This document shows positions 14,765 through 45,504 of a DNA stretch of 64,000 nucleotides, one piece after another (within the stretch, counting starts at the first letter, position 1; each line of letters opens with the position of its first letter). The position numbers and the translations under genes are program-made. The notes beneath the pieces are model-generated. The model was given only the letters and a program-made list of their open reading frames with translations. It made no database searches and was not told the origin of the DNA. Source of the DNA: an uncultured Spirochaetia bacterium (GTDB taxonomy: Bacteria > Spirochaetota > Spirochaetia > JABEVK01); contig CALGPJ010000009.1 in the NCBI GenBank assembly GCA_937960645.1, positions 4,522 to 68,521 of the forward strand, in the 5' to 3' direction.

Positions 14765-15087
14765 AACTTAGTTTTCGACAAAATTTGATCAATTGTAAAG
14801 CTAACGTAGTGCCTCAGCAATTGTCCCCCAGAATTAACGACTTTTGGGCCAAAAATTAGTAAAAATGTTCGCAAAAGCCACGATCCTCGAACACATTCCC
14901 CAAATAATGGAAACAAATATCGCCCGCAAAAACCCGGAATTTCCCAATTAGGCGAAAACCACAAGCCACATGGGCCCATTTTGTGGCTGACAGGCAAAAC
15001 TTGAGCACAATCAACGCGGCACTAAGTAAAGCTAAAGAGGAAGATTGCAATTGTAGAGAACCTGACAAGGACTTATAATCATTGCAG

Positions 15088-16866
15088 ATGATGAACAATA
15101 ATACCATAAAAGGCGATCTCGTCATTTTTGCCCTGTCCGTGTTCGCGGCCACGATGATAGCCTTCCTGATTCCGCCCATCACTCCCTGGGAATACTTTTG
15201 GAAGGACAGGATCCTGCGCCACACGCGCCTGTCATCGGCTGCTGAATCTGCACCCGAAAACCGCCTCCTCATCGTGGGCATCGACGAAACCTCCTTCGAG
15301 GAGATTCAGCGCCGCTGGCCCTGGCCCCGGGACCTTCTTGCGGAAGGTATCCGCAAAATCGTGGAAGGCCGCCCCGCTCTGATCGCCCTGGATGTAGGAC
15401 TCTGGGACAAAGGATTCTCGCCACGAGAAGACAGAGAGCTGGCCGAGGCCTTGAGTCCGGTCCCCCACGTCCTCCCGATCAAGTTCGGGGTTCAGTACCT
15501 CGAAGGAATGGAGGTCAGCCGACTTTTTCTTCCGCTGAGGGAGTTTCGCCAGGTCAACACCCGCCTGGGCTTCGTGAATCTGGCTCCAGACAGCGACGGA
15601 TTTATTCGAGATCTTCCCCTCACGGAGACCTTCAACGACGAAACCTGGCCCAGCTTTGCCCTGGCCATCGTGCGGGAGGCCTTTCCCGAAGCCCTGGAAC
15701 GCATCCCGCAAAGCAACGTCGTCCCCACGCGCTGGGTAGGACCGCCGGGAAGTATTCCCATGGTCAGTTTTTCCGATGCTCTGTACGGCAACGTTGCGGA
15801 AGGGACCTTTCAAAACAAGGTGGTGCTCATCGGAGCGATGTACCCCGAATCCAAAGACAGCTTTCCCACGGCCTTCTACAATGAAGGAGAGATGTACGGG
15901 GTCGAAGTCCACGCCCAATGGGTCGAAGCCCTGCGCCGTGGGGCCTTTCTGCAAGAGCCGCACTTTTTGGTGCTTTTATCGATGACTCTGCTGATGTTCC
16001 TACTCCTCGGTTCAGCCGTCTTCTTCCTGCCGATTCGTTTTTTCTTCCTGAGTTTAACCGTCGGTCTCGTAATCTACGGCGGCTTCCTGGAGTGGCAAAC
16101 TTACACCGGCGTTCTTTGGGCGGCCACACCCCTGTTGGTGGGTTTCGTCGTGCTGACGCAATCGGCTCTATGGTCTCGGTACCTCAGAGAAATCCGCAAT
16201 CGCCAACGCCTCATCGCCCAGTTTTCCCGCTACGTCTCACCCAAAATCGTCCGGTCGATTTTGGATACCGAACAAGATCTCAAACTGGGAGGCGATCGCA
16301 AACAGGTGGCCATCCTATTTACCGATATCCGCAACTTCACCACGCTCTCGGAGAAATGGCAACCCGAAAAGGTGGTGGAGATGCTGAACCAGTACTTCAA
16401 GGAGATGTGTGATGCCGTGTTCGAATTCGACGGCACGGTCAACAAGTTCATCGGCGATGCCGTGATGGCCCTCTTCAATGCCCCGCTCCATCAAAATGAC
16501 GCCCCGGAAAGGGCTGTTCGCACCGCCCTCTCCATGCGCCGGCGTTTGGGAGCGATGAATTCGATCCGCATCAAAAACGGCGAACAACCCATCGCCATCG
16601 GTGTCGGAATTCATTATGGGGAGGTCATCTCGGGAAACATCGGATCGCCCAACCAGATGGAGTACACGGTGATCGGAGATGCGGTCAACACCGCCAGCCG
16701 CATCGAATCGCTGTGCAAGGAATTAAAATCGGATATACTGATTAGTGACGAGGTGTATCGACACGTCCAAGATCGGCTGGAAGTGGTATCCCATCCGCCT
16801 GTCCAAGTCAAGGGCCGCTCGATTCCGGTTGTCGTGCATTCGGTAAAGGAATGGAGGGGAGGCTGA
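15088..16866 (+). CDS. CHASE2 sensor domain-containing class III adenylate/guanylate cyclase
   Basis: N-term TM + CHASE2-like periplasmic region, 3-4 TM helices, C-terminal cyclase domain (ILFTDIRNFTTLSE...FIGDAVMALFNAP...GIHYGEVISGNIGS...YTVIGDAVNTASRIESL); TATAAT 8 nt upstream of ATG 15088. Confidence 0.8.
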   Translation: MMNNNTIKGDLVIFALSVFAATMIAFLIPPITPWEYFWKDRILRHTRLSSAAESAPENRLLIVGIDETSFEEIQRRWPWPRDLLAEGIRKIVEGRPALIALDVGLWDKGFSPREDRELAEALSPVPHVLPIKFGVQYLEGMEVSRLFLPLREFRQVNTRLGFVNLAPDSDGFIRDLPLTETFNDETWPSFALAIVREAFPEALERIPQSNVVPTRWVGPPGSIPMVSFSDALYGNVAEGTFQNKVVLIGAMYPESKDSFPTAFYNEGEMYGVEVHAQWVEALRRGAFLQEPHFLVLLSMTLLMFLLLGSAVFFLPIRFFFLSLTVGLVIYGGFLEWQTYTGVLWAATPLLVGFVVLTQSALWSRYLREIRNRQRLIAQFSRYVSPKIVRSILDTEQDLKLGGDRKQVAILFTDIRNFTTLSEKWQPEKVVEMLNQYFKEMCDAVFEFDGTVNKFIGDAVMALFNAPLHQNDAPERAVRTALSMRRRLGAMNSIRIKNGEQPIAIGVGIHYGEVISGNIGSPNQMEYTVIGDAVNTASRIESLCKELKSDILISDEVYRHVQDRLEVVSHPPVQVKGRSIPVVVHSVKEWRGG

Positions 16867-16867
16867 G

Positions 16868-17500
16868 ATGAAAGTTCTGGTTTTGCTGATTCTTTGCTCT
16901 CAAATCCCTGCCCAAATGACGCTCTTGTCGCAGGAGGGGCAGGTCTATGTTCGCATCCAGGGGAGCAACGCCTTCCGGCAGGTTCAGCCGGGTGAGGTCC
17001 TGCCTGCTCAGGCAGTGGTGATGACCCGGGACGAGAGCTCTGCCGTTCTGGTTGCGCGTTCGGGCACGGTTCGCAGGCTTCGCCCCAACAGCCGGCTGAC
17101 GGTCCCCGTGGAGCCAAGCGACCAGGATTCGCCCCTGTACACCTCGGCCCTGGCCAAGAGCCAGAGCCGGGAGCGCAGCCGGCTGAGCATGACCCAGGTC
17201 GGGGCCACCCGGGCTCAGGACAACGCGGCTCCCCTGGCGGACACGCCGATGAGTGCCGCACAGCGGCAAAAACTGCAGGAAGCCGAGGTCGGTCTGGAAG
17301 CCTTGGACCTTGACCCCATCTCCCTGGCCCTGGTACGGGGAGCTCTTCGGGAGGAATATGCCCAGTGGGCTTCGGCCGAAAAAATTTACAAGGCGGCCCT
17401 GGCAACTCAGCCCGATCACGCTCTACTGCGGGATAGCCTTGCCGATCTCTACTTCAAACAGGGAAAACTGCGCCTGGCCCAGGAGTTTCGGCGACCATAA
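16868..17500 (+). CDS. FecR-domain protein with C-terminal TPR-like region
   Basis: GQVYVRIQGSNAFRQVQPGEVLPAQAVVMTRDESSAVLV...PNSRLTV fits FecR (PF04773) pattern; start 1 nt after cyclase stop; GGAGG RBS. Confidence 0.6.
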   Translation: MKVLVLLILCSQIPAQMTLLSQEGQVYVRIQGSNAFRQVQPGEVLPAQAVVMTRDESSAVLVARSGTVRRLRPNSRLTVPVEPSDQDSPLYTSALAKSQSRERSRLSMTQVGATRAQDNAAPLADTPMSAAQRQKLQEAEVGLEALDLDPISLALVRGALREEYAQWASAEKIYKAALATQPDHALLRDSLADLYFKQGKLRLAQEFRRP

Positions 17501-17560
17501 CCGGTTTTATTCTTGACTTTACTTTTAAATCAGTCTAAATAATGATCATTGGGGGTGTTG

Positions 17561-19225
17561 ATGTTTCAGGCTAGACACCTGAAGTTCTTGGTTATGGTAC
17601 CCCTTTTTCTGCTGGGACCTCGTACTGAGGGCCAGGAGGGAATGCGCATTGCCCTGGTGGTCGGGGTCAACCGCTACGACCGCCTCTCGCCCCTCAAAGC
17701 CGCCGTCAACGATGCCCAAAACATTGCCGCACACTTCCAATTATCCGGCTATGACCAGGTTTGGACCCTGACCGACAACGCCGAACAGCCCACCGCACGC
17801 GCCAGTATGGTGAACTTCCAGATCATGCTCGAGAATATCGAAAAGTTGGCCCAGACCGAGGCGATCTCCGAGCTCGTGGTGTTCTTCGCCGGCCACGGGG
17901 TTCAGGTGCAGGGCGAAAACTACCTTTGCTTTCCTGAGGCTGACCTCGCCGGCCGACGCGGTATCATCTCGGTGGACCGCGAGCTCATCCCCTGGCTGCG
18001 GCGCGTTCCGTCCCGGCTCTCCCTCACCTTCCTCGATGCCTGCCGCGAGGACCTGGGCCCGACCCGATCGGCTGGGGTTACCCGGGGTCTGGTCCTGCCG
18101 GCCAACATCGGTGGGGAATCTTCCCGCAATATTCTGGTTGCCTACTCGGCCCGACCGGGAGAATACGCCTACGAAAAACCTGACGGGTCGGGAGGCTTCT
18201 TCACCGATGTACTGCTCGAGGCCCTGCGCAAATCGGAAAAGATCAACCTGGGCCAGCTGGTACAGTACCTGCGGAGTCAGCTTCCCCAGCGCACCCAGCA
18301 GGTGTTCGGCAAACTCCAGATCCCCAGCTTCGGCGGCGATTTCGACCTGGACGCCTCGCTGACCAGCACCACCCGAATCAACCGAGCACTGCTCGCCAGC
18401 CTGCGTTTCCGATCCGAGATTCCCGTGAGCGCGGTTTACCTCAACGAGGAAAAGATCCCCATTCAGCCGGATGGGACGGTCGCCCTGAACCCGGGAGACT
18501 ACCTGCTGCGGGCGGTTTCCGGCAACAATTTCTGGGAAGCCAACATTTCGATTAAGGGTACGGGGGCCGTCACGGTCCTGCCAGATTGGAAGCCTGCTGG
18601 AACGCTCGATTTCCATCTGCCCCCGGCGGCCGCATTGGAACTTACGAACACTGGCTCAGGAACCGCCCTCCTGGTGGAGCGCGCCGGGGTGGTGCCCTAC
18701 ATCGAGGCAGGGACCTGGAAGGTCCAAACCGTGGGCAAGGCCTATCTCCCCTGGCAGGGCGAGTTGGTGATCACACCCGGCCAGACCACCCGCCTCAGCC
18801 CCCCGCTCCAGCCAGCTCCCGACCAGGAGCTCACCATTCGCCGGGCCGCCCTTGCCTGGGAACGCGATCGACTGGAGTCCCGCATCCCCGAAGCAGCCCG
18901 CCGGCGGCAGGAGTCGGCCCTCGTCCCCTGGTTGGCCGCTACCGGGGGCATCTCGCTGACCGCAGCGGGGGCCGGCCTATGGGTCTGGAGCGAGCTGGCC
19001 TACGCCGAGTACCAGGCGGCCACCAACAGTTTTGATGCTCAGAGCCGGCGGGAGCTGGTACAGGCCCTCGATATTTGGAAGTGGGTGGGACTGGGATTGG
19101 GCGCAGCCGGACTGGCAGCCTGGGCGGGGTACGAAGTTGCCCATCCCCACCCCGACCGGCTTCAAGACGCCATCCGGCGCCTGGACGAACAATTGAATGC
19201 CCTGGGTCCAAAGGAGGAACCATGA
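17561..19225 (+). CDS. caspase-family (peptidase C14) protein with signal peptide and C-terminal transmembrane segments
   Basis: caspase His/Cys dyad context FFAGHGVQ ... LTFLDACRED; N-terminal signal peptide; two hydrophobic helices near C-terminus. Confidence 0.7.
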   Translation: MFQARHLKFLVMVPLFLLGPRTEGQEGMRIALVVGVNRYDRLSPLKAAVNDAQNIAAHFQLSGYDQVWTLTDNAEQPTARASMVNFQIMLENIEKLAQTEAISELVVFFAGHGVQVQGENYLCFPEADLAGRRGIISVDRELIPWLRRVPSRLSLTFLDACREDLGPTRSAGVTRGLVLPANIGGESSRNILVAYSARPGEYAYEKPDGSGGFFTDVLLEALRKSEKINLGQLVQYLRSQLPQRTQQVFGKLQIPSFGGDFDLDASLTSTTRINRALLASLRFRSEIPVSAVYLNEEKIPIQPDGTVALNPGDYLLRAVSGNNFWEANISIKGTGAVTVLPDWKPAGTLDFHLPPAAALELTNTGSGTALLVERAGVVPYIEAGTWKVQTVGKAYLPWQGELVITPGQTTRLSPPLQPAPDQELTIRRAALAWERDRLESRIPEAARRRQESALVPWLAATGGISLTAAGAGLWVWSELAYAEYQAATNSFDAQSRRELVQALDIWKWVGLGLGAAGLAAWAGYEVAHPHPDRLQDAIRRLDEQLNALGPKEEP

Positions 19226-20981
19226 AACTACGGTACGTCGGATATGGCCTTTGCATTTTGGCCTTGGCCTCCTGCCAGCGGGTCTTTGACAACCCCTACG
19301 ACCCCCTCAATTCCCTGCGAAACTCGAATCCATCCAATCCTGCCACTTGGACGGTGACCTACACCGCACCCGATGCCCAAGGGGGTTCCGTTCCCATCGA
19401 CCCGATGTCGTACCTCACCGCGCAGACGGCCACTGTCCTGGGCAATCCGGGCGGTCTGGCCCGCAGCGGGTTGACCCTGTCTGCCTGGAGGCAGGGTACC
19501 ACCGATTATGTCCCCGGGGACAGCCTGATCATGACCTCCTCCCTGACCTTGACAGCCCAATGGACCAGCTCCGCAGGAGGGCTCACGACCCTCAGCGCCA
19601 GCGCTGCCCCCAACAGCAGCTATTTCCACGACGTTGCTGTGGCCCCGGACGGTTCGGTATACCTGGTAGGTTCGGTTTACGGCACAGGTAGCTTTACCTT
19701 TAATTCTAAAAGCGTTTCAGGGATTTACGGCTCAGGTCACAACGCCCTCATCATCAAGCGAAACCCTGATGGAACGGTGGCCTGGGCCAAATCGGTGAGC
19801 GCTGGTGGCAACACCTCGGTGTTTCGTGGGGTGGCGGTGGACAGTGCGGGAAACGCCTACGCCGCCGGCTACCAGACCGGAACGGGTAGCTTTACCTATG
19901 ACACCGGCAAGTCCGCCAGCGGTCCCTCGACCTCCTACAACGCCGTCCTGGTAAAGTACACCCCCAGCGGAGCCGTCGAATGGGTCAAGACGGCCAGTTC
20001 CGGGGGCCCCTCGAACTCGTGGAACGGTGTGGCTGTCGTGGGTTCCCAGGTGGTTGCTGTTGGAGAACAAGCAAGCTCAGCCACCCTCAACTGGGGGGAG
20101 TTTCCACTACATCCTCGAGCAGCTCAGGAGCCGGGCTGGTGGTGGCCTTTCAAACCACGAATGGCACACCGCTGTGGGGTCACTGTCTCGGGGGATCCGC
20201 TTATAGCACCCTTGAGAGAGCCACACCCTCCCCCGATGGTCAGAAGATCGCCGTGATCGGCTTCACGGGAGGCAACACGTCTTACGCTTCCACGGACTTT
20301 ACGGTTCCCGGCAAGAGCGTGCTGGTACTTCAACTGGATAGCTCGGGCAGCCTGCTCTGGGGCCGCACGGCCTCAGGCACCAGCACAGCGCCCAGCGAGG
20401 GCAAGGGTGTGGCCTACACTCGGGAGGGAAGGCTGTGGATCACCGGATATTACACCAAATCCACTGGTGGTAACAGCTTCGATTTGGGAAGTCAAAGCCT
20501 GAGCGTCGGACCAGCCTCTGGAAAGAACACCTTGTACGTAGCCAAGCTCGAACCCGACGGCACCGTCACGCAACTTGTCAGCTGGAATAACCCCGTCAGC
20601 GCCTCGGAAGGGCACGATATCGATGTCGATGTCTGGGGAAACGTGTTTGTAGCGGGCAGTGTCCAAAAGGATAGTTTTACTTTTTCCGGCATCTTGAGCA
20701 ACCAGACGCTTAATTACACCGACGGCAACGCCACCGGAAATTTCTTTCTTTTAAAACTCAATCCTCTAGGCAACGCTGAATGGGTCCGAGGTCACAACCG
20801 AACTTCTTCTCCCAATTCGACGTATTTTGGGGACGTGGCCGTTTCCTCGGAAAAGGTCTATGTCACGGGGTATACCAAGGGAAATCTCTCCTACCCCTTG
20901 CCGGCCCACCCCAGCGGGACCTTGAACGTTCAGGGGGTTTATAGCCTGTTCAACGCCGCCCTGGTGGTATTCCAGCGCTGA
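19222..20981 (+). pseudogene. SBBP (beta-propeller repeat) surface lipoprotein, interrupted by +1 frameshift at G6 tract 20093-20098
   Basis: AAGGAGG RBS, lipobox LALASC|Q; repeated ~50-aa units (G.VAVD..GN.Y.AG...G...F.........VKY..DGT..W) continue seamlessly from frame of 19222 into frame of ORF 19980..20981 if one G is added to the G6 run. Confidence 0.6.
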
Positions 20982-20988
20982 ATACTCC

Positions 20989-21336
20989 TCAGTCCAGAAG
21001 TTTCAGCAGTTCGTCCTTTTCGAAGGGCTTGATTAACCATGCCTTGGCCCCGGCCTTGAGCCCTTCCTCCACCATCGCCTTGTCGCTTTCGGTGGTGATC
21101 ACGATGATCGGAGTCTTTGCATACTCCGGAATCTTGCGGACCTCTCCGATAAACTGGATGCCGTTCATCCGAGGCATGTTGACATCCACCACGAAATAAT
21201 CGATGTGGGGCCGCCCCTCGAGCTTCCGGAGTGCATCCTCGCCGTTTTCCGCCTCGAGGAAATCGCCCTTTTCCTGAACGGCCATATGAACGATTTTGCG
21301 CATGGTGATGGAATCGTCAATTCCCATGATGGTCAT
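20989..21336 (-). CDS. cheY: CheY-like single-domain response regulator
   Basis: DDS...D(VVD)...NMPRMNG...T...K(WLIKP) receiver residues. Confidence 0.75.
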   Translation of the reverse strand: MTIMGIDDSITMRKIVHMAVQEKGDFLEAENGEDALRKLEGRPHIDYFVVDVNMPRMNGIQFIGEVRKIPEYAKTPIIVITTESDKAMVEEGLKAGAKAWLIKPFEKDELLKLLD

Positions 21337-22037
21337 GCCTTTTCTCCTTTGAGCACTTTTGTCAGGATCTCTTTTTCGGATTTTGTCTTTAGCGAGGGAG
21401 CGACAGCTTCGCGGAAGCGTTGTTGGCCCTCCGCGGATGGCTTGTCGAGGTCGTATCCGTAAACGGAGAGCAGCCCCTTCACGGTACTCAGTTCTGCCTC
21501 CTCACTCTGCAACAGGGACACCACGGTCTGAATTTGCTGCTGGGCGGCATCCTCGTGCTGAAGCTGCTCCAAAATCTGGTCCAGGACTTGTTGCTGCCGA
21601 GATTCGCTTAGCTTCTGCCGCAAACTTCCCAAAAGATCGAGGATGGCATGGACCGCCTGATTGATCTGCCGCGCCGTACTCACCAGCGACAGGCGCCAGA
21701 ACCTCAACCGTACCCGTGCAAGGGCCAGGTGGTCGGCGGCGCCTCCAGCCGATCGCAGGAGGGGAATCAAAACATTTTTCACGAGCTTTTTGGGGGAGAG
21801 GCGCTGCCACTCGGCGGGGATGTCCTCGGCTTTGAGGTAAAGCTCGTAGACGACGTCCCGTTTTTTCTGATGCCGGCGGCCCCACCGCAGTTTTCGGCTA
21901 GAGGCGAGGAGAAAAAGCAGGAGGACAAAAGCCCCGGTATAAGCCACCAGCACGGCCCATGTCGGCAACCGATCGGAAACCAAACCCACCGAGGCTGCCA
22001 GAAACAGGGATGATGCCAGGATCAATAGCACGACCAT
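21333..22037 (-). CDS. hypothetical membrane protein (2 TM, coiled-coil C-terminal region)
   Basis: ORF only; overlaps cheY start by 4 nt (co-transcribed). Confidence 0.4.
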   Translation of the reverse strand: MVVLLILASSLFLAASVGLVSDRLPTWAVLVAYTGAFVLLLFLLASSRKLRWGRRHQKKRDVVYELYLKAEDIPAEWQRLSPKKLVKNVLIPLLRSAGGAADHLALARVRLRFWRLSLVSTARQINQAVHAILDLLGSLRQKLSESRQQQVLDQILEQLQHEDAAQQQIQTVVSLLQSEEAELSTVKGLLSVYGYDLDKPSAEGQQRFREAVAPSLKTKSEKEILTKVLKGEKA

Positions 22038-22072
22038 GTTACTAGCTTAACCGAGGAATTGGGTTTCGACAA

Positions 22073-22098
22073 TAAAAAACCGCCCCTTTCGGAGCGGT
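22073..22098 (-). terminator. rho-independent terminator downstream of groEL: CCGCTCC-gaaa-GGGGCGG + T6 (minus strand)
   Basis: 7-bp stem (one G-U), GAAA tetraloop, TTTTTT run, immediately after groEL stop. Confidence 0.65.
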
Positions 22099-22119
22099 TG
22101 AAACAGCGAGGGCGCCAAA

Positions 22120-23811
<1,692 letters not shown>

Positions 23812-23910
23812 TCAAATGTTTAGTAAATGGCAAGAGGTCGGGGGGGAAATGTTTGGCCATGGCGCGGCTTTCCAGCAAGAGACGCATCTTCTACATTCAT
23901 TCTTCGCCGC

Positions 23911-24046
23911 GCGCGAAGCACCCATCAAAAATTGCCTTAACCTGCGCAGCCCGTTCCGCGAAGCGGAATGGCGCGGTTCTTGCGCAAACGAGCGAAGCGA
24001 GTAGCGAGAACCGTGACAAAGGGCAAGTCAGGTTGAAGCAGTTGTC
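23911..24046. repeat. left copy of ~130-bp degenerate direct repeat bracketing vapBC
   Basis: shares gcgcgaagc...ATGGCGCGGTTcTTGC...GAGCgAAGCG...GTGACAaAG...GTTGAAGCaGTTGT with 24714-24829 (~65-70% identity by eye). Confidence 0.5.
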
Positions 24047-24055
24047 CGCTTTCTC

Positions 24056-24457
24056 TTATTCATAGATTTTAAGGTCCTCTGCAACTTTTTGAATGTGATC
24101 AAAATCGGCATCATTATGTAAAAGATATAAATTGTTTTCTAAGGCTGTTTGAACTATCAAAAGATCAATTGTACTTCTAATAGTGATTCCCAATTTTCTA
24201 CATTTTAAATTGAGTCGAGCAGCTTCAGTGTGTGATTCTAATCCATTCCGCAACTGATAGATTGGAATAGTTTCTAAATATTCTTTTAACACGTCAAATT
24301 CTTTCTGATCTTTCGAGCCTTGTAGTATCTCCTGATAAATAAGAGGACTAATCCCAAATGGTATTTTCCTTTTAATTATTTCATCAAGCAGTTTAACTTT
24401 AATATTATCAGTGCCTTTCAAATAATCAATCAAAACAGATGTATCAACAAGAATCAT
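24056..24457 (-). CDS. vapC: type II toxin VapC (PIN-domain ribonuclease)
   Basis: MILVDTSVLIDYL... PIN acidic residues (D5, E, D, D), low GC (~30%), 4-nt overlap with upstream antitoxin gene. Confidence 0.85.
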   Translation of the reverse strand: MILVDTSVLIDYLKGTDNIKVKLLDEIIKRKIPFGISPLIYQEILQGSKDQKEFDVLKEYLETIPIYQLRNGLESHTEAARLNLKCRKLGITIRSTIDLLIVQTALENNLYLLHNDADFDHIQKVAEDLKIYE

Positions 24458-24663
24458 GAGTCATTTCTCATTTTTTTATAATCATACTCATCAGAAAAAT
24501 GAATTAACCCTTTTAGTTCATTAAGATTTTTAACTCGATGATTTCTTACAAATTCTATTAAGGCTAACTCAACAAGATCTTTTTTTGTACGGATGTTTCC
24601 AGCATACTTAAAAGCTTCCTTAACTAAGTTATCATCCAGGACAATATTTGTACGCATATACAC
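24454..24663 (-). CDS. vapB: type II antitoxin VapB
   Basis: 69 aa, MRTNIVLDDNLVKEA N-terminus typical of VapB antitoxins; translationally coupled to vapC. Confidence 0.7.
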   Translation of the reverse strand: MYMRTNIVLDDNLVKEAFKYAGNIRTKKDLVELALIEFVRNHRVKNLNELKGLIHFSDEYDYKKMRNDS

Positions 24664-24670
24664 CTCTCAA

Positions 24671-24688
24671 TGTGTATAATAGTACACA
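24671..24688. promoter_or_regulatory. palindrome TGTGTAtaatagTACACA upstream of vapB (candidate vapBC promoter/autoregulatory operator)
   Basis: perfect 6-bp inverted repeat flanking a TATAAT-like core, 8 nt upstream of vapB start on minus strand. Confidence 0.4.
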
Positions 24689-24713
24689 TACAAAGAAACG
24701 TCAATATCTTGTT

Positions 24714-24829
24714 TGCGCGAAGCGTCAACCGTACATTTGCTGAACTTGCAACGCGTCTATGGCGCGGTTTTTGCCGAGCAAAGCGTCAACAAAAGTGTGA
24801 CAGAGAAGAGTTTAGTTGAAGCGGTTGTT
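24714..24829. repeat. right copy of degenerate direct repeat bracketing vapBC
   Basis: see left copy 23911-24046. Confidence 0.5.
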
Positions 24830-24943
24830 ATACGTGTTTTACATATGTTTAAGAAATTCTATAAATGTTACACATCTATACGGAGGTATTTGAGCTGCAA
24901 TCCAATTCGTTCCTCTTTTAACACTTTTTGTTCTATCCTTTTT

Positions 24944-25690
24944 TTATGTAGTTTTTAGTTTTAAAGGATCATCTAAAAAGAAATACGTAAATTCCTTATC
25001 TTCATTATCCAATTTTGTTCCATCTATCCATTTTTTTACTAGTGACTCGTTATTATCTGCGAATTCCATTAAATCATCTTTGAATGATTCTACTTCACCA
25101 GGTTTACATGAAATAATTCCTAATATTTTGGAGATGAAAGAAATACCTTCTTCTTCACCAGATTTTTTTGTGAAATATGGTGCGAAATATAAAGGATTAC
25201 TGGAAATAACATCACGCCGATAAATATTATAATCAAAATATTTTTTTAATTCTAATTCAACACTTAAATCTTGAACTAGTATTTCTTTTTTATTTCTCAA
25301 TTTATATCCCCTATGTATGAAAGTTTTAAAGTCCTTAATTAATTTCTCTTTATTTTTTGGTAAATTCTTATCATCAATTAATTCATCAATATCAGACCAA
25401 TAAATATTTTTAACAATTATGTCTTTTTTGTAATCATTGATTTGTGTGATGAAGCACAATACTTTCTGCGACTCATCTTGAAATGATTCTAAGTATTGTG
25501 TTCTTTGTTCGTCTACTTTATTTTTACCAATTTTTGCTTCAATTATTACATGAAAATTATCTCTCAATCGTATTTCAACATCGGTTCTACCTTCTTTACG
25601 TTTCTTTTCAATAATAATTTCAATATTTCTATAGTTTTCTTCTGTATTCTTATTTGTAATTCCTAAATATCGTAAAAACTTAAAAAGCAT
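24944..25690 (-). CDS. PD-(D/E)xK nuclease-like protein, low-GC, probably 5'-frameshifted (true start likely ATG 25815)
   Basis: motif D(VEIRLRDNFHVII)EAK resembles restriction-endonuclease-fold catalytic core; reading frame stays open upstream of ATG 25690 to 25801 without any start codon, while a GGAGG-aaaaa-ATG at 25815 opens a 14-codon ORF in the adjacent frame. Confidence 0.45.
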   Translation of the reverse strand: MLFKFLRYLGITNKNTEENYRNIEIIIEKKRKEGRTDVEIRLRDNFHVIIEAKIGKNKVDEQRTQYLESFQDESQKVLCFITQINDYKKDIIVKNIYWSDIDELIDDKNLPKNKEKLIKDFKTFIHRGYKLRNKKEILVQDLSVELELKKYFDYNIYRRDVISSNPLYFAPYFTKKSGEEEGISFISKILGIISCKPGEVESFKDDLMEFADNNESLVKKWIDGTKLDNEDKEFTYFFLDDPLKLKTT

Positions 25691-26211
25691 TGTTGAATCT
25701 TTTGATAGAATAAAAGCAAATGCTTTTGCTAAACCAGTTTCATCAAAACCATATAAGTAAAACGGATTTATTGAGTAATTTGTAATATAATACCACTTGG
25801 TTTAATGATCATTTTTTCCTCCGCCCGAAGGGCCCTTATAACACCATTTCGACCGTTCCGTGAATAATAACTCTGGCCTGTTCTTTTTTCCTGATAAAAC
25901 CAGATTCTCAAAGAATTATTACATCCCAAATATGCCAACAAAACTTTGTCAAGTTCCTAAGAAGTCCCAACGTACAAATTTCAGACCACGAAGGAGGTCC
26001 ACGAAAAGGCGGGAAGTTGGGTGGCCAGGCCCAGGGATACCGATGCCACCGGCAGGAAAGACAAAGGTCTCCGACACACCGTAAACGGCCATCGATTCCT
26101 CTTTGCCTTTACGCCGGCCAATCTCCTGGACTCAGTAGGGTAAGATTATTAACCCCAGAGAAAATGACCACCACACCAGCGAAAATTTTTCTAATTTTTC
26201 CTCCCCCGGAC

Positions 26212-26238
26212 TAAAGTTTTCACCCATCCTGCCGATAA
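26212..26238 (+). promoter_or_regulatory. sigma-28 (FliA) promoter TAAA-N15-GCCGATAA upstream of flaB1
   Basis: exact match to the class III flagellar promoter consensus TAAA N15 GCCGATAA, ~90 nt upstream of the flaB1 ATG. Confidence 0.6.
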
Positions 26239-26326
26239 TGACAAAGGAGGTCTAAACGGAATTAGGCCCCCGCCGGATGTTATCCGGTACCCCCATCATG
26301 ATTCTGAGTATTCACGGAGGAATACG

Positions 26327-27187
26327 ATGATCATCAACCACAACCTGAGCGCCATGTTCGCTCAGCGCCAACTCAAGGTCACCAACGGTGACGTCACCAA
26401 GGACATGGAGAAGCTGTCCAGCGGCTTCCGGATCAACCGGGCCGGCGACGACGCCTCCGGTCTGGCCGTTTCAGAAAAGATGCGGGCTCAAATCCGCGGT
26501 CTGAACCAGGCCAGCCAGAACGCCAGCAACGGCATCAGCTTCATCCAGGCCACGGAAGGATACCTCCAGGAAACCCAGGACATCCTCCAGCGCATTCGTG
26601 AGCTGGCCGTCCAGGCTTCCAACGGTATTTACACCGACGAAGACCGGATGCAAATCCAGGTCGAAGTCAGCCAACTCATCGACGAGGTGGACCGCGTCGC
26701 CTTCCATGCCCAGTTCAACGGCATGAACATGCTGACCGGCTCCTTCGCCCGAGACATTGGCGAAAACGTGCCCACCGCCAGCATGTGGTTCCACATCGGC
26801 GCCAACGTAGACCAGAGGATTCGGGTCTACATCCAGACCATGACCGCCGCGGCCCTGAGCATGCGCGGTCTCACCGACAACTCGATGCTGAGCCTTCGGA
26901 CCCCCGAATCGGCCAACCAGGCGATCATGATCCTGGACAATGCCCTGCAGATTGTCTCCAAACAGCGGGCTGACCTGGGTGCCTACCAGAACCGCCTGGA
27001 ATTCGCCGTGAAAGGTCTGGACATCGGCGCCGAGAACCTCCAGGCTGCCGAAAGCCGTATCCGCGACGCGGACATGGCCAAGCAGATGGTGGACTACACC
27101 AAGAACCAGATTCTCGTGCAGAGCGGTACCGCCATGCTCGCGCAGGCAAACACCCGCTCGCAGAGTGTCTTGCAACTTCTCCGATAA
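26327..27187 (+). CDS. flaB: flagellar filament core protein FlaB (spirochete-type flagellin)
   Basis: 286 aa, [15 protein letters not shown]...[27 protein letters not shown]..., conserved flagellin N and C termini, GGAGG RBS. Confidence 0.95.
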
Positions 27188-27197
27188 GGAGTTACTA

Positions 27198-27225
27198 TTC
27201 AGGGTGGGGGTCACTCCACCCTGAA
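27198..27225 (+). terminator. hairpin TTCAGGGTGG-gggtcact-CCACCCTGAA after flaB1
   Basis: perfect 10-bp inverted repeat 10 nt after stop; weak T-tract (tatgttcttt). Confidence 0.5.
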
Positions 27226-27402
27226 TATGTTCTTTGACATTCGTACCCTTCATCTTGCTCCCCAAGGGGGTTTTGACTGCCCGAACAGCCATTTCCCCCT
27301 TGGGCTGTGGCATTTGGTCTTCTTCCTGACGCGGAGGAAAGGGCGGTGCCGCTGAGCAAGAGGAGGCAAGGGATTGCCTCTCAAAAACAAAGGAGGGTAC
27401 AT

Positions 27403-28254
27403 ATGGTTATTAATCACAACATGAGCGCCATCAACGCCAACCGGGTTTTAGGGAATGTCCAGCTGGACCTCACCAAGAACCTGGAAAAGTTGTCCAGCGG
27501 GTTGCGGATCAACCGCGCCGGCGATGACGCTTCCGGTCTCGCGGTCTCGGAAAAGATGCGGGCGCAGATCCGCGGTCTCAACCAGGCCGAGAAAAACATT
27601 CAAAACGGCGTGAGCTTCATTCAGGCCACCGAGGGCTACCTTCAGTCCACCACCGACATCCTGCAAAGGGTGCGCGAACTGGCTGTACAGGCTGCCAACG
27701 GGATCTACAGCGCCGAGGACCGGATGCAGATTCAGGTCGAGGTGAGTCAGCTCGTGGACGAGATCAACCGTATTGCGGATCATGCCCAGTTCAACGGCAT
27801 GAATATGCTCACCGGCAGTTTCGCCCGCGGTGACGACGCTCAGGCTTCGGGTCTGCAACTGCAGGTCGGTGCCAACGTCGACCAAAACCGCCGCATCTAC
27901 ATCGGCAACATGAGGGCGGACGCTCTGGGAGTGGACAAGCTGCTCGAGCAGGAGTCGGCGCTGACCAGTGCGGAAGGGGCCAACAGGGCCATCATGCTGA
28001 TCGACGGCGCTCTCAAAGAGGTCAACAAGCAGCGTGCCGATCTCGGCGCCTACCAGAACCGCTTCGAGATGGCCGCCAAGGGCGTCGCCATCGCTGCGGA
28101 AAACCTGACCGCTGCCGAATCCCGCATCCGGGATGTCAACATGGCCACCGAGATGGTCGAGTACACCAAGAACTCGATCCTCAGCCAGTCGGGCACCGCG
28201 ATGCTGGCTCAGGCCAATGTCAGAAGCCGCTCGGTCATGCAGCTCTTGGGCTAA
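27403..28254 (+). CDS. flaB: flagellar filament core protein FlaB paralog
   Basis: 284 aa, [15 protein letters not shown]..., ~75-80% identical to upstream flaB; AAAGGAGGG RBS; the longer ORF from 27307 was trimmed. Confidence 0.95.
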
Positions 28255-28344
28255 ACCGTTAGAGATTTCTGGACGTTATTTCTAACGGAAGAACGAAGAA
28301 TTGGGGGGCCGCGTCACCCTCAATTTCTTTCATAAGGAGGCAGT

Positions 28345-28698
28345 ATGTCGATTGAAACCATCGGACTCACCAGCTCCCAGCTCTTCGCTAACCCGCGGCC
28401 GGCCAACGTCAAAGCCGCGGTGCCGGAAGCTGAGGTGGCACGCACCAACACGAGCGCGGAGGAGGCCGCAAAATTGAAGGCGGAAATGCGCCAGATCGTC
28501 GACGAACTTGCCAGGATGGCCAGGAGCTTCAATCGCCGTCTCGAATTTAGCATCAACGAAGACATTAACCAGGTCATCGTCAAGATCGTCGACCAGGATT
28601 CCGGGGAGGTCGTCAAGCAGATTCCTCCCGAAGACGTCGTCCGAGTGCACGCGCGCATCCGCGAGGCTATCGGTCTCCTGTTTGACCAAAAGATCTGA
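28345..28698 (+). CDS. flaG: flagellar protein FlaG
   Basis: 117 aa, position between flagellin and fliD, C-terminal ...INQVIVKIVDQDSGEVVKQIPPE typical of FlaG; AAGGAGG RBS. Confidence 0.65.
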   Translation: MSIETIGLTSSQLFANPRPANVKAAVPEAEVARTNTSAEEAAKLKAEMRQIVDELARMARSFNRRLEFSINEDINQVIVKIVDQDSGEVVKQIPPEDVVRVHARIREAIGLLFDQKI

Positions 28699-28700
28699 GC

Positions 28701-30704
28701 ATGGGCGACATCAGCATCCCGGGTGTCTCCAGCCGCTACAACACCCAAAAACTCATCCAGGATTTGCTCGATGTCGAAAAACGCAAACTCACCCGACTCG
28801 AAACCCAAAAAGCCGACCTGGAGGACACCAAACAGATTTGGCAGTCCTACAGCCGCCGCATGTCGGTGCTCCGGGATGCCGCGCGAAATCTTTTTGGATT
28901 TGAATCCCCCTTCGCCAACCGAATCGGCGAGTCCAGCCAGGCCAATGCAGTCAGCCTCAACCCCAACCGTTCAGCTGCCGAGGGCCAGTGGCGGATTAAG
29001 GTCCTCCAAATCGCGACGGCCGACCGGCTTTTGAGCGACGAGCTTCCTCTCGACGCCACAGCCCCGGCGGGCGATTACCGCTTCAAAGTGGGCGATCAGG
29101 AGGTAACGGTCAACTTTCGAGGCGGACGGTTATCGAACCTGGTGGAAGCCATCAACCAGCGCGGCCGGGACCTGATCCGGGCCAGCCTGATCCGCACCAC
29201 AGCCGACCGTCAAGTTTTAAGTATCGAGGCACAAAAGACCGGATCCCAAAACCGGCTGGAATTTTTTGGCGCGGCCCGGGACTTCGTTACCCAGGCAGGA
29301 TTAATGCGCCCCTCTCGGACCACCGATCAAACCATCCCCCTCACCGCTGAAACGACACGGACCCGCACGGCCCCGGAGTCGGTTACCCTTTCCGAAAATC
29401 AGCTCACGCTCCAGCCCCGTGCGCGTGCCGAGGTGCTCCTCAACCGGGATGTTAGCCGCGGCCTGGTGCTGGAGGTGGACATTCAGGCCGAGCGGCTGAG
29501 CCAGGAAGAAGTTCCCGCCCCCCCGCCGGGCCTGAACCTGGAGCCGCCGGGCGTGGCAGAATTCCAGGACATTCGCATTCGTAGCAACCCCCTGCGGACG
29601 GGTCTGCCGCGGTTCGAACCGCCGACCCCCCAACAGCCAACCAATGACCCGCGCGTGGGTCAGCTGCGCACCGCCGAACGGCAGATCGATCTGCCCAATT
29701 TTCCCCTGGAGGGCGGCTCGACGACGCTCAAGGTCCCTCTGGAGGGCATCGCCCGCCTGGACCAGCTGATCCTCGACAACCGTAACACCCACATGCGCTA
29801 CACCCTCACGCAGATCCGTCTGGTCGATCCGAACGCCCGCGGCGATCTCGAGCCAAAAAATGCGCAGACCACCGCCCAGGACGCGGTGTTCGAGATCGAC
29901 GGCGTGCGGGTAACCCGCCCCACCAATTCGATCAACGACGTGATTCCCAACGTCACCATCAACCTCTCCGATACGACACCGGCCCCGGCCACGGTCAAGG
30001 TCACCCCCGACTACGAATCCATCAAAAACGGCATCATCAACTTCGTGGGAAATTACAACCGTTTCATGCTGGAAACCCTGGTGCTGACCAGTCGCAACGA
30101 AGCCATCCTGAACGAGGCAAACTACCTCAGCGATGCCGAGCGGGAAGCCCTGAGAAAAAACATGGGGAAGTTCCAGGGGGATACCTCCCTGAACCAGCTG
30201 CGATCCAGTCTTCAGCGTTTCATGATGGAGCCCTACCCCTCGGGAGTTCCCAACATCAGCCTCCTGCAACAGGTGGGCATCAGTACCAACACCTCGGGGC
30301 GAACGAGCGGCTCCACCCCCGAGGCAGCCCGGTTACGGGGCTACCTGGAAATCAACGAGGGCCAGCTGGACCAGGCGATCCGGGAAAACCTTGTGGCCGT
30401 GAAAAATCTGTTCGGCATGGATACCAACGGGGATCTGGTCATCGATAGCGGGGCAGCCTTCCGGGTGGATGAATACATTCGCCCCTACGTCCAGACCGGC
30501 GGTTTCATCGCCAACCGCGTCAACACCCTGAACTCCCAGATCGATCGTCAAAACAGGGAAATCCGCAACTTCAACGATTATCTGGTTCGATACGAGCAGG
30601 ACCTCAAACGGCGATACGGGCAGATGGAAGGGGCCCTCAATCGTATGCAGGAAACCGGCCGAGCGATCGATAATTTTAGTAGACAAAACTCAGGCGGTAA
30701 TTGA
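28701..30704 (+). CDS. fliD: flagellar filament capping protein FliD (HAP2)
   Basis: 667 aa; conserved FliD N-terminal (ISIPGVSSRYNTQKLIQDL) and C-terminal (IRNFNDYLVRYEQDLKRRYGQMEGALNRMQ) coiled-coil regions. Confidence 0.85.
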   Translation: MGDISIPGVSSRYNTQKLIQDLLDVEKRKLTRLETQKADLEDTKQIWQSYSRRMSVLRDAARNLFGFESPFANRIGESSQANAVSLNPNRSAAEGQWRIKVLQIATADRLLSDELPLDATAPAGDYRFKVGDQEVTVNFRGGRLSNLVEAINQRGRDLIRASLIRTTADRQVLSIEAQKTGSQNRLEFFGAARDFVTQAGLMRPSRTTDQTIPLTAETTRTRTAPESVTLSENQLTLQPRARAEVLLNRDVSRGLVLEVDIQAERLSQEEVPAPPPGLNLEPPGVAEFQDIRIRSNPLRTGLPRFEPPTPQQPTNDPRVGQLRTAERQIDLPNFPLEGGSTTLKVPLEGIARLDQLILDNRNTHMRYTLTQIRLVDPNARGDLEPKNAQTTAQDAVFEIDGVRVTRPTNSINDVIPNVTINLSDTTPAPATVKVTPDYESIKNGIINFVGNYNRFMLETLVLTSRNEAILNEANYLSDAEREALRKNMGKFQGDTSLNQLRSSLQRFMMEPYPSGVPNISLLQQVGISTNTSGRTSGSTPEAARLRGYLEINEGQLDQAIRENLVAVKNLFGMDTNGDLVIDSGAAFRVDEYIRPYVQTGGFIANRVNTLNSQIDRQNREIRNFNDYLVRYEQDLKRRYGQMEGALNRMQETGRAIDNFSRQNSGGN

Positions 30705-30707
30705 ACC

Positions 30708-31562
30708 ATGATCTTGAAAATCAACGGGGAGGAAGTCTCCTGGTCCGATATGGAGGCTTCGAGCTTCGACGAGGCCCTGAAGGAGATCCAAAACTGGCTG
30801 CTAGCTCAGGGATGGAGACTGGTTTCCTACAGGATTCACCCGGAATCGGCCTCCCGCGGAGCGCCGGCCCTGTCCGAAATCGACGTGTTGGATATCGAGG
30901 CCGAGGTTTTGAATCAGACAACTCTCACCCACCTCGATATTTTAATCCTTTGGTTGGACAGCCTCGGTCACGGCCTTATATCCCGTAACGAGACTGTCCG
31001 GCAAAATTGCCGGGAAGCGGCGGATCAGATCATCAAAAGTGCGGACCTGCTTTTTCATAACGGCATCAACATCCCCGTGAACCTGATCCGAAACCTGGTT
31101 CACGAAGTCGATTCCGGCTGGACCGAACTCCAGAAAAATCGGCTGGAGATCGACCAGCTTCAATCCCAGCTGGAACGCCTGAAAACCATGCTCCTGTACC
31201 CCCGCGAATCCATTCAAAAACTAGTGGATTTGATCAGCTACAGCTTATTTCAGACGGATGGACTTCCCCAACTCGTCTACGCGCAGCGTTACTCCGAAGC
31301 CATGGGTCTGATCGTCTCCATCCTGGACCACTACTCCCTTCTTGTGTTCGGTCTTGCCCAAATCACGACTCCTGACGAGATGAAACAACTGCAAACCGAG
31401 TGCCTCCCCTTTTTCAACGAACTCAGCGAGGCCATGGAGCGGATGGACTGGACCTATATCAGCGACCTCTGGGAATACGAAATTCATCCCAGGCTGACAA
31501 GGCTGGTAGAATTGATTAAATTACAGGCGGGGATAGAACAAAATGCGTCTCAAGGGTCTTGA
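30708..31562 (+). CDS. hypothetical protein in flagellar fliD operon (position where fliS is found in many bacteria)
   Basis: ATG 4 nt after fliD stop; 284 aa, helical, no recognisable FliS signature. Confidence 0.45.
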   Translation: MILKINGEEVSWSDMEASSFDEALKEIQNWLLAQGWRLVSYRIHPESASRGAPALSEIDVLDIEAEVLNQTTLTHLDILILWLDSLGHGLISRNETVRQNCREAADQIIKSADLLFHNGINIPVNLIRNLVHEVDSGWTELQKNRLEIDQLQSQLERLKTMLLYPRESIQKLVDLISYSLFQTDGLPQLVYAQRYSEAMGLIVSILDHYSLLVFGLAQITTPDEMKQLQTECLPFFNELSEAMERMDWTYISDLWEYEIHPRLTRLVELIKLQAGIEQNASQGS

Positions 31563-42768: not shown

Positions 42769-43724
42769 CGGGGGTCCGAGCCATCGCCCATCCCAGCCTG
42801 GCCCTCATCAAGTACTGGGGCAAGATCCCCGGCGGCATCAACCTGCCCGCCACCCCAAGCCTCGCCCTGACCCTCGGGGGTCTGGCAACCACCACCACCG
42901 TGACCCTGGCCGATGAGGATCGGTTCGTCCTCGACGGTATCGAACGGGAGGATGCCAAGGTGGCCGAGTTTCTGGACCGAATCCGCCGCCTCAGCGGCTT
43001 TTCGGGGCATGTTCACATCGATTCCCACAACGATTTTCCGACCGCCGCGGGACTGGCCTCGAGCGCCTCTGGTTTTGCTGCCCTGGCCGGCGCGCTCTGG
43101 GCCCTCATCCGTCAGGAAGAGCCCGACCCCGTCCAACTGAGCGAGTGGGCCAGGCTGGGAAGCGGCAGCGCTTGCCGTTCGGTCTATGGCGGCTGGACGA
43201 CCTGGGACCAGGGGGCCACCGAGGCCCAGACGCTCGCGACAGCGGACCACTGGCCCGAGGTGCGCGTGATCCTCTTTGTTGTCTCTTCGGCTGCCAAGCC
43301 CCTGGGCAGCCGGGAAGCCATGAACCGGACGCGGGATACCAGCCCCTACTACCCGGCATGGATCGAGGACGCACCCCGGCTCTACGCGGAAGCCAAAACG
43401 CACCTCCTGCAGAAAAACTGGCAGGGTCTGGGCGAGGCCATGCGGCTCAGCTACCTGCGCATGTTTGCCAGCATGTTTGCAGCCCGTCCACCGGTGGTTT
43501 ACTGGCTGCCCACCTCGGTGGCCCTCCTCCATCTGGCCCAGGAGTTACGGGAACAGGGTCTGGGCGTCTACGAGACCATGGACGCCGGGCCTCAGGTCAA
43601 GTTCTTCTGCCGGCAGTCCGAGGTGGAAACCGTGGTTCAGTCCGTCCACGAGCGCCTGGGTCCGCTGCCCTACCTCGTGAGCTCAGCGGGTGAAGGGCTG
43701 AGGGTCCAGGCATGGTCCGGCTAA
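42765..43724 (+). CDS. mvaD: diphosphomevalonate decarboxylase
   Basis: LALIKYWGK N-terminal motif, GHMP-kinase fold; ATGA overlap with mvaA. Confidence 0.85.
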   Translation: MTGVRAIAHPSLALIKYWGKIPGGINLPATPSLALTLGGLATTTTVTLADEDRFVLDGIEREDAKVAEFLDRIRRLSGFSGHVHIDSHNDFPTAAGLASSASGFAALAGALWALIRQEEPDPVQLSEWARLGSGSACRSVYGGWTTWDQGATEAQTLATADHWPEVRVILFVVSSAAKPLGSREAMNRTRDTSPYYPAWIEDAPRLYAEAKTHLLQKNWQGLGEAMRLSYLRMFASMFAARPPVVYWLPTSVALLHLAQELREQGLGVYETMDAGPQVKFFCRQSEVETVVQSVHERLGPLPYLVSSAGEGLRVQAWSG

Positions 43725-44614
43725 GCGCCCCGGGCAACCTTCTCCTTGCTGGAGAATACGCGGTCCTCGAAGAGGGCGGCCTGGGGCTATGCCTTGCCCC
43801 CGAGGTTCGGGCCACCCTGGCGATCGAACCGGCGCCGGACTGGGAAGTCGAATTCCGTTACGAGGCCCGCTGCGATGTCTGGCGGGGCGAGGGTCCCCTG
43901 CCCCCGCTTCTGCAAGCCCTCGCCTCGGTGCTGGGTGAACTCCCCAGGGCTCGACTTGTCCTGGATACCACCGCTTTCAGCCCAAACGGACAAAAAACCG
44001 GCCTGGGCTCCAGTGCCGCGGCCGCCCTGCTATTGACCGCAGGCTTTGACCACATACTTCACGGCGAGCGTGCGGATGTGGATGTCCTGGCCCCCCTGGC
44101 GGTGCGCACTCACCGCCACTTTCAGGGCGGCCGGGGGAGCGGCTACGACGTGATGTGCAGCGCCTGGGGGGGCTTGACCCTGTTCCGGGGAGGCGAAACC
44201 CCTTCGGCCCGCCGCCTCGATCTGGGCTGGCTACCGGGGCCGGCCCTCGTTTCCGGCCTCGATCCTGTCAGCACCCCCGCCGCCGTCCTCTCTTACCGGG
44301 AATGGAAAGAAGGGCATCCGCAACAGGCTGCCCACTACCTGGAGCGCAACAACACCCTGATCTCCCAGCTGGCCAATGCCGATTCGTTGGAGGCGGCCCT
44401 TCCCCTGCTGCGCGATCTATCCGAGCTGTCCCGCCAATTGGGCCGCCAGCTGGGCCGGCCCGCCGAGGTGCCGCCGCAACTGAAAACCTTTCTATTCGCC
44501 AAGGCCCTGGGAGCTGGGGACGAGCTGTTCTGGGTTCTGGATCAACCGGAGAGGCTACAAGCCTTCGGACTCGGATCCTTGGACATCGCCTGGGAGGGGC
44601 TGCGGTGGGAATAG
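43712..44614 (+). CDS. mvaK2: phosphomevalonate kinase (GHMP kinase)
   Basis: SAPGNLLLAGEYAVLE (PMK APGK..L.GEY.VL motif), GLGSSAA ATP-binding motif. Confidence 0.8.
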   Translation: MVRLSAPGNLLLAGEYAVLEEGGLGLCLAPEVRATLAIEPAPDWEVEFRYEARCDVWRGEGPLPPLLQALASVLGELPRARLVLDTTAFSPNGQKTGLGSSAAAALLLTAGFDHILHGERADVDVLAPLAVRTHRHFQGGRGSGYDVMCSAWGGLTLFRGGETPSARRLDLGWLPGPALVSGLDPVSTPAAVLSYREWKEGHPQQAAHYLERNNTLISQLANADSLEAALPLLRDLSELSRQLGRQLGRPAEVPPQLKTFLFAKALGAGDELFWVLDQPERLQAFGLGSLDIAWEGLRWE

Positions 44615-45504
44615 CTCACGCCAAGCTCCTGCTCTTCGGGGAACACGCCGTGGTTCAGGGCTACCCGGCCCTCGGCCTGGGTCTTCCCCTGAGGCTGAGG
44701 GCCGCCTATCGGGGGCCGGCTCAGGACTGGTCGGTCGAGGGGCTGCCCCCGGAGTTTCAGGAGCAGGTGCTGGGGGCCGTTCGGCGCCTGATCGAGGCCT
44801 ATCCCCCTGACTGCTCCCCGGGTGTGCTGTGTTTCCAAAGTGAGATTCCGCCGGCAAGCGGACTGGGATCGAGTGCGGCCCTGTGCAGCGCCCTGGTGGC
44901 CCAATTCTATCCCGAACTCTCCCCCACGGAACATTGGCGGCGGGCCCTGCACGCGGAAAACTACTTTCATGGCAAATCGAGCGGGGTCGACGTGGCCCTC
45001 GCCATGCGTGAAGGGCTGTGGTTGTTCGAGCCCAGATCGGAAGGACCGCTGTTGACCGAGGTAACCTGTCCGCCCCTGGCCCTGGTGATCGGCAGCCTTC
45101 GCCGACGGGCCGAGGCCAAATCTCTGATCCTGGACATCCATGGCAGGGCTCAGGCAAAGGAGGGCCGTGTTCTTTCTCTGTTGCAATTCCTGGGACAATC
45201 AGCGAGCAGGGCCGCAGAACTGTTGCAAAGATCCCCACCCGCCATCGAGGAAGTCGGCCGGCTTGCCACTGAAAATCAGAAAATCCTGGAGAGCCTCGGA
45301 CTGGGGCACCCATCCTGGGAAGAACTGCAATCGACGGCAATCAGAGCGGGGACCGTCGGCGGCAAATGGAGCGGGGCGGGAGGTGGTGGTGCCTTTTGGT
45401 TTCTCTACACCGACCCGGGAACCGCTCGCAGGGCCGCCTCAAAGCTGCGCCGAGCTCGTCACATCGAATGGCTTTTGGAACCCCGAGAGCTCATTCTCGA
45501 ATAG
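44605..45504 (+). CDS. mvaK1: mevalonate kinase (GHMP kinase)
   Basis: AKLLLFGEHAVVQG (MVK K.ILFGEHAVV motif), GLGSSAA; GTG start overlapping PMK stop. Confidence 0.8.
   Translation: MGIAHAKLLLFGEHAVVQGYPALGLGLPLRLRAAYRGPAQDWSVEGLPPEFQEQVLGAVRRLIEAYPPDCSPGVLCFQSEIPPASGLGSSAALCSALVAQFYPELSPTEHWRRALHAENYFHGKSSGVDVALAMREGLWLFEPRSEGPLLTEVTCPPLALVIGSLRRRAEAKSLILDIHGRAQAKEGRVLSLLQFLGQSASRAAELLQRSPPAIEEVGRLATENQKILESLGLGHPSWEELQSTAIRAGTVGGKWSGAGGGGAFWFLYTDPGTARRAASKLRRARHIEWLLEPRELILE

Follow-up and report, generated by a model that had tools for sequence, protein, structure and literature searches.

The two open reading frames at window positions 19222–20981 are parts of one SBBP lipoprotein gene, interrupted at a run of six G on the + strand (context CAACTGGGGGGAGTT). 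The window is the whole stretch of DNA that was analysed, 64,000 nucleotides long. The preliminary description had proposed that a single lipoprotein gene is split at this run and restored by a seventh G, and translation, homologues and relatives all bore this out. With one G inserted, the restored protein was a single lipoprotein as described, and its exact length was 586 aa rather than the earlier estimate of about 585 aa. An ordinary slippage null allele, recent, confined to one strain and lying in an accessory, fast-evolving lipoprotein gene, fits the observations best and is probably the correct reading. The features of the gene around the G run are:

19212..19225, + strand: Shine-Dalgarno sequence AGGAGG (19212–17) and ATGA, in which the SBBP start codon overlaps the stop codon of the caspase-like gene upstream (sequence, ORF list)
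19222..20097, + strand: 5' portion of the SBBP lipoprotein gene, read in the true frame, with signal peptide, lipobox, InlB-B-like region, blades 1 and 2 and half of blade 3 (ORF translation, Pfam)
20093..20098, + strand: G6 homopolymer, the frameshift site, one G fewer than the G7 of both relatives (sequence, relatives)
20097..20981, + strand: 3' portion of the gene, its codon phase shifted by −1, with the rest of blade 3, blades 4–7 and the stop codon at 20979–81 (translation, AlphaFold2)
20098..20256, + strand: 52 codons read out of frame at the end of the truncated product (EFPLHPRAAQEPGWWW...RRSP), with the stop codon (translation)

Frame A started at ATG 19222 and ended at the stop codon 20254–56, giving a product of 344 aa with the N-terminus MKLRYVGYGLCILALASC. 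Frame B was open from 19902 to the stop codon at 20979–81. Because both frames were open over 19902–20253 (352 nt), the switch point is not fixed by the sequence alone. Homology sets it, as relatives at 99.4–99.5% nucleotide identity differed there by exactly one extra G (G7). After restoration, the segment ..ATLNWGGVSTTSSSSSGAGLVVAF.. matched the repeat consensus ..TYTYGxxSxxGxxxxNxVLVKY.. without gaps in an alignment with 16 distant homologues (19–31% identity), and distant SBBP homologues at 25–31% identity were also gap-free across ..LNWGGV... The 52-codon tail of the truncated product had no counterpart in the relatives or in these homologues. Downstream of the tract, about 294 codons were still open, without a secondary lesion. 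The downstream frame had been labelled the +1 frame in the preliminary description; adding one G does restore the gene, but the shift in codon phase is −1 (19222 = 1 mod 3, 19980 = 0 mod 3).

A run of six G is in itself unremarkable in this DNA, and the window holds 9 G6 and 14 C6 runs. The non-random aspect is the coincidence of a G6 run with the frame switch. At the 5' end of the gene, the ATGA overlap together with the Shine-Dalgarno sequence suggests translational coupling inside an operon.

The tract was compared in three assemblies over an aligned span of window 9222–33765; exact-protein look-ups for the remainder gave no match. The close protein cluster (90%) had four members from three contigs. 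Two of them, P0043 (344 aa) and P0042 (242 aa), both on a 134.5-kb contig, were the window's own two pieces. The third, P0041, was an intact protein of 584 aa from a 96.6-kb contig (ERZ6863697, locus L007), and the product of 19222..20097 was 97% identical to its N-terminal part. The fourth, P0001, had 395 aa and came from a 50.7-kb contig (ERZ6864144, locus L001) that starts inside the gene. L007 was syntenic with the window and 99.48% identical over window 9222–30983; L001 was syntenic and 99.4% identical over window 19734–30976. Private differences were spread nearly evenly across the three lineages (36, 24, and 25).

Both L007 and L001 have GGGGGGG at the tract and read through in frame, and the complete protein is present only in L007. 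The comparison with orthologues that had been proposed as a check thus gave a clear answer: both close relatives were G7, so tract length differs between assemblies. G7 yields proteins of 584–586 aa, G6 yields the truncated 344-aa product, and the repeat number sets the frame. G7 therefore appears to be the working state, and the window lineage would have lost one G, because an intact frame needs G7. A fixed pseudogene shared by the whole lineage was excluded, as the orthologues read through with G7 and the downstream frame of the window has no stop. With the restored protein as query, no further near-identical copies were found in GTDB species representatives or JGI metagenomes, where the best match had at most 43% identity.

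The restored protein carries a lipobox, L-A-S-C (LALASC), after a basic N-terminus and a hydrophobic stretch, and the codon of Cys18 lies at 19273–75. Pfam analysis gave an SBBP match (PF06739) of 27.2 bits against a cut-off of 20.5, and a weak InlB-B-repeat (Flg_new) match at residues 44–113. Seven repeat units of about 60 residues each are legible in the sequence, and the G tract lies inside the third. The alignment served as input for an AlphaFold2 model, which had a pTM of 0.75 and placed residues 121–586 in one all-beta domain. Its pLDDT was mostly 85–97 up to residue 350, with 86–87 at residues 281–300, and the model was continuous over the junction. In a Foldseek comparison, the model aligned with the CylK propeller over 466–481 columns (E 5e-18). 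Residues 121–586 are thus predicted to form a single seven-bladed SBBP beta-propeller. The score above the gathering threshold, the seven repeat units and the modeled propeller fold all place the protein among the SBBP beta-propellers.

The protein shares SBBP repeats, a lipobox and the propeller fold with the Leptospira LipL53 family (NF047494) and with CylK-type propellers. Membership in the LipL53 equivalog family was rejected, since the score was 57.7 bits against a curated cut-off of 400. The protein is 18–19% identical to CylK, a similarity that implies no catalytic role.

The product of the G6 allele would have 2.5 blades, followed by 52 unrelated residues. The 3' part of the gene has neither a signal peptide nor a ribosome-binding site of its own. 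We infer that the G6 allele is null. The lipobox-bearing protein may be exposed on the cell surface, as judged from its sequence.

Under the preferred reading of a recent null allele, the following course is proposed. The Trp-Gly-Gly codons of blade 3 (TGG GGG GGA) would make the G7 run, and slipped-strand mispairing at replication would have removed one G in this strain or population. Translation would then run out of frame past residue 292, add 52 unrelated residues and stop, and the resulting product of 2.5 blades would be unable to close the propeller. The same slippage could revert the G6 allele. Slippage is the presumed mechanism, and the six-G run is presumably a true state of the DNA. 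The event is likely recent because the downstream 294 codons remain open. On the window branch, the part downstream of the tract had accumulated 3 synonymous and 3 nonsynonymous changes, with no stop and no decay. The tract bears no sign of shaping as a switch. What separates a null allele that is able to revert from a contingency locus is a matter of rate and selection.

The SBBP gene evolves fast. Between the window and L007, it differed at 24 nonsynonymous and 10 synonymous positions, whereas 18 neighbouring genes together differed at 19 and 34, respectively. Its nonsynonymous density (pN) was 12.8 times that of the neighbours (Fisher p = 1e-14), and omega was 0.81 versus 0.18. Between L007 and L001, which both carry read-through alleles, omega was 1.17 (14 nonsynonymous, 4 synonymous). 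On the L007 branch, 11 changes were nonsynonymous and none synonymous, and seven of these lay within 34 nt (20700–20733). Two features of this part of the gene vary among the three assemblies:

20377..20382, + strand: in-frame indel of 6 bp (GCACCA, Ser-Thr) where GCAC..GCAC forms a short direct repeat; the window and L001 have it, L007 lacks it (alignment)
20700..20737, + strand: hypervariable patch corresponding to a low-confidence or disordered loop of the model, about residues 489–506 of the fused protein (alignment, AlphaFold2)

The loop reads SNQTLNYTDGNATGN in the window, is nearly the same in L001, and reads SDPTLDYSDGDTSEN in L007. Three N-x-T motifs became D-x-T/S in L007. Possible explanations for these changes are diversifying selection, recombination over a short tract, and loss of sequons of the glycosylation type. 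At the strain level, the protein evolves unusually fast, and the changes are concentrated in this one loop.

The SBBP gene is the last of a four-gene block:

15082..20981, + strand: accessory block of a CHASE2-class III cyclase, a 210-aa TPR protein, a caspase-like C14 peptidase and the SBBP lipoprotein (Pfam, synteny)

The block was syntenic in L007 and in a further locus, L009, and absent from L008. In L008, which represents a sister lineage (GroEL 97% identical), a response-regulator gene directly adjoins a PAS-protein gene (L008 12440–13965). The block therefore appears, from synteny, to be an accessory island. As the gene is accessory, a plain loss-of-function allele is unsurprising. GroEL was 86% identical to that of Spirochaetales MAGs and 82–83% to those of Salinispira and Spirochaeta isovalerica, which identified the host as an uncultured Spirochaetales bacterium.

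Two further observations concern the upstream part of the block. The cyclase domain of the CHASE2 protein (15082–16866) matched PADLOC models of PycC, the Pycsar cyclase, at up to 1e-29. Homology among class III cyclases in general is the most likely explanation of the match, and a Pycsar effector was not seen. We rejected the block as a known defence system: PADLOC returned only this generic cyclase (PycC) similarity and a caspase similarity, and none for the SBBP protein. Separately, the first 134 positions of the L001 contig (L001 1–134, the same as L010 14034–14165) share 132 identical nt with an internal stretch of the CHASE2-cyclase gene (window 16256–16387). This stretch is joined through two filler bases (TT) to the interior of the SBBP gene at window 19734. 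The junction is either a 3.35-kb deletion, covering the 3' end of the cyclase gene, the TPR gene, the caspase-like gene and the 5' end of the SBBP gene, or a chimeric contig end. A real deletion would mean that the operon was knocked out a second time, independently.

Other variation was seen on the aligned span. The window and L007 differed by four indels: the G tract, the 6-bp in-frame indel at 20377–82, A3/A2 at 24963, and T7/T6 at 25163. The last lies in a low-GC gene (window 24944–25690, − strand, 24–28% GC) beside a VapBC pair, with a weak match to PD-(D/E)XK nucleases. With A7 on the coding strand, the window encodes a product of 248 aa; with A6, both relatives encode one of 180 aa. Residues 2–246 of the window's product could be aligned with homologues of about 330 aa, compared with which even this product lacks about 40 residues at either terminus. 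The gene seems to have been acquired horizontally and to be decaying, and its frameshift at 25163 is carried by the relatives. As the window is intact there and the relatives are truncated, gene-breaking homopolymer indels go both ways among these strains. A non-coding inverted repeat, CAGGGTGGGGGTCACTCCACCCTG (window 27201–27215), lies some 20 nt past the end of the first flagellin gene (27187); the G run within it is G5 in the window and G6 in L001.

The missing G could also be an error: the assembler or polisher may have dropped one G, in which case the organism is truly G7 and the gene intact. A homopolymer is the classic place of indel errors, both independent relatives have G7, and the downstream frame is free of decay. 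In addition, all three single-base indels between the window and L007 fall in base runs, with the window the odd one out at each. The surrounding sequence argues against an error. Over 21.7 kb, the four indels stood against 105 SNPs between the window and L007, and none was added out to window 33765. Gene tiling by codon usage showed no other same-strand frame switch and no other broken gene in the 64 kb. The three other G7/C7 runs of the aligned region had the same length in all assemblies. At 25163, it is the window's run length that keeps homology to the relatives of about 330 aa, so there is no systematic shortening of homopolymers in the window. The relatives' contig names (c_0000...) resemble those of large short-read co-assemblies reformatted with anvi'o; if the window's contig comes from the same project, G6/G7 miscalls would be rare. 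These clean local assembly statistics make an assembly error less likely, and we regard it as unlikely overall.

The tiling also brought up a candidate for a second frameshift at 43712–45504, where two ORFs on one strand, in different frames, share 460 nt. It was rejected because each ORF has its own GHMP-kinase N domain, and the two are adjacent genes.

The preliminary description offered two readings of the tract, a candidate phase-variable site, with immune evasion as the known role of such switching, and an indel error in the reference; a split gene without a switch figured there only as a refuting outcome. In its general form, the phase-variable reading makes the tract an evolved hypermutable switch, ON at G7 and OFF at G6 or G8, that allows escape from phage, predators or host recognition, and the window would represent a population dominated by the OFF state. 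Tract length does toggle the frame, and it differs between assemblies at 99.4–99.5% identity (one G6, two G7). Phase variation, too, would predict a length polymorphism of this kind in the gene of a hypervariable surface protein. The lipobox and the predicted exposed hypervariable loop are in line with a selected surface target, as is a dN/dS near 1 even between read-through alleles. L001 possibly holds a second inactivating lesion of the same operon. G7 falls within the PhasomeIt cut-off for G/C tracts of 7 or more (PMC6321876), and spirochaetes do use poly-G phase variation, as in tprL of T. pallidum (PMC7864442).

The properties of the tract itself weigh against a switch. The working tract of G7 is at the PhasomeIt minimum, where, according to the authors of that program, a tract may have a mutability of less than 1e-5, which would make reversible switching inefficient; validated tracts are mostly of at least 8 (PMC6321876). 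The tract of T. pallidum tprL has 7–11 G, with 9 the commonest, and the characterised tracts of that species lie in promoters (PMC7864442). Here, the tract is in the middle of the gene (codons 291–293 of 586), not near the 5' end, and consists of ordinary Trp-Gly-Gly codons (TGG GGG GGA). Selection for a G tract through codon choice was unsupported, as GGG makes up 25% of the Gly codons in the window and GGG-GGN 12% of its Gly-Gly pairs. The other G7/C7 tracts of the aligned region, three in number, were invariant, and a single OFF state was seen among the three assemblies.

The window as a whole pointed in the same direction. Against the expectation of a first-order Markov model of the 64-kb window, G/C runs of at least 6 were about threefold depleted (28 observed, about 91 expected). 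There were 5 runs of at least 7, with about 29 expected, and none of at least 8. The G7/C7 runs were at 23840, 44166, 4115, 29518 and 32142. Owing to the depletion of G/C runs, the 64-kb window has no phasome signature.

With a tract of minimal length when intact, depleted G/C tracts, a mid-gene position and ordinary codons, the phase-variable immune-evasion reading was left without specific support. Since GroEL identifies the organism as an uncultured Spirochaetales bacterium, the immune-evasion rationale has no basis here. We consider an evolved switch quite unlikely. A more specific version, in which a G6/G7 switch operates in a non-treponemal spirochaete, with the SBBP lipoprotein as a phage or predator target and escape through both ON/OFF slippage and loop diversification, is about as unlikely.

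Programmed recoding, that is, regulated full-length expression of the G6 allele through −1 ribosomal slippage on G GGG or through transcriptional slippage, is extremely improbable: although a −1 slip of tRNA-Gly, with GGG 20095–97 re-pairing with GGG 20094–96, would yield exactly the ..NWGGV.. encoded by G7, the frame change is not shared by the relatives, in which one continuous frame encodes the protein, the canonical slippery heptamer X XXY YYZ is absent from the zero frame, and the fold of the 92 nt downstream is no better than that of shuffled sequence (z = −0.8), leaving no stimulatory structure, so programmed frameshifting was rejected. A run of six G is short for efficient transcriptional slippage. 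Some leaky read-through of the G6 allele is plausible from its sequence.

Among known systems, strain-specific frameshift pseudogenes at short homopolymers show the same pattern: a short run in a dispensable, fast-evolving gene has lost one base, and sister strains keep the gene intact. They have no anatomical difference from this locus, and an example in the opposite direction lies 5 kb off, at 25163. Poly-G/C phase variation, as in the Campylobacter jejuni phasome and the contingency loci of Neisseria and Haemophilus, likewise involves an intragenic G tract that sets the frame of a putative surface protein. Tract lengths there also differ between near-identical genomes, and the mechanism, slipped-strand mispairing, is the same. 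Unlike in those loci, the working tract here is only G7, its position is mid-gene, and the window is depleted of such tracts. Treponema pallidum belongs to the same phylum, and its tprE/G/J, tp0126 and tprL also combine a poly-G tract with putative outer-membrane or surface targets (PMC7864442). Its characterised tracts, however, are in promoters, typically have 8–11 G and tune transcription, whereas the tract described here is intra-ORF, G6/G7, and acts by frameshift (PMC7864442). The host also differs, being an uncultured Spirochaetales bacterium and not a treponeme pathogen.

For annotation, the two ORFs should be treated as one gene whose functional allele is G7. As it stands, the finding is of minor import: it adds one homopolymer frameshift allele, in a dispensable gene for a surface protein, to a class of events that is well known. 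Were the locus truly a switch, phase variation through simple sequence repeats, known mainly from host-adapted pathogens, would also occur in an uncultured spirochaete, and at the lower limit of tract length. If tract lengths were found to be mixed within samples, the SBBP lipoprotein and the cyclase/TPR/caspase operon would be marked as a target of strong fluctuating selection.
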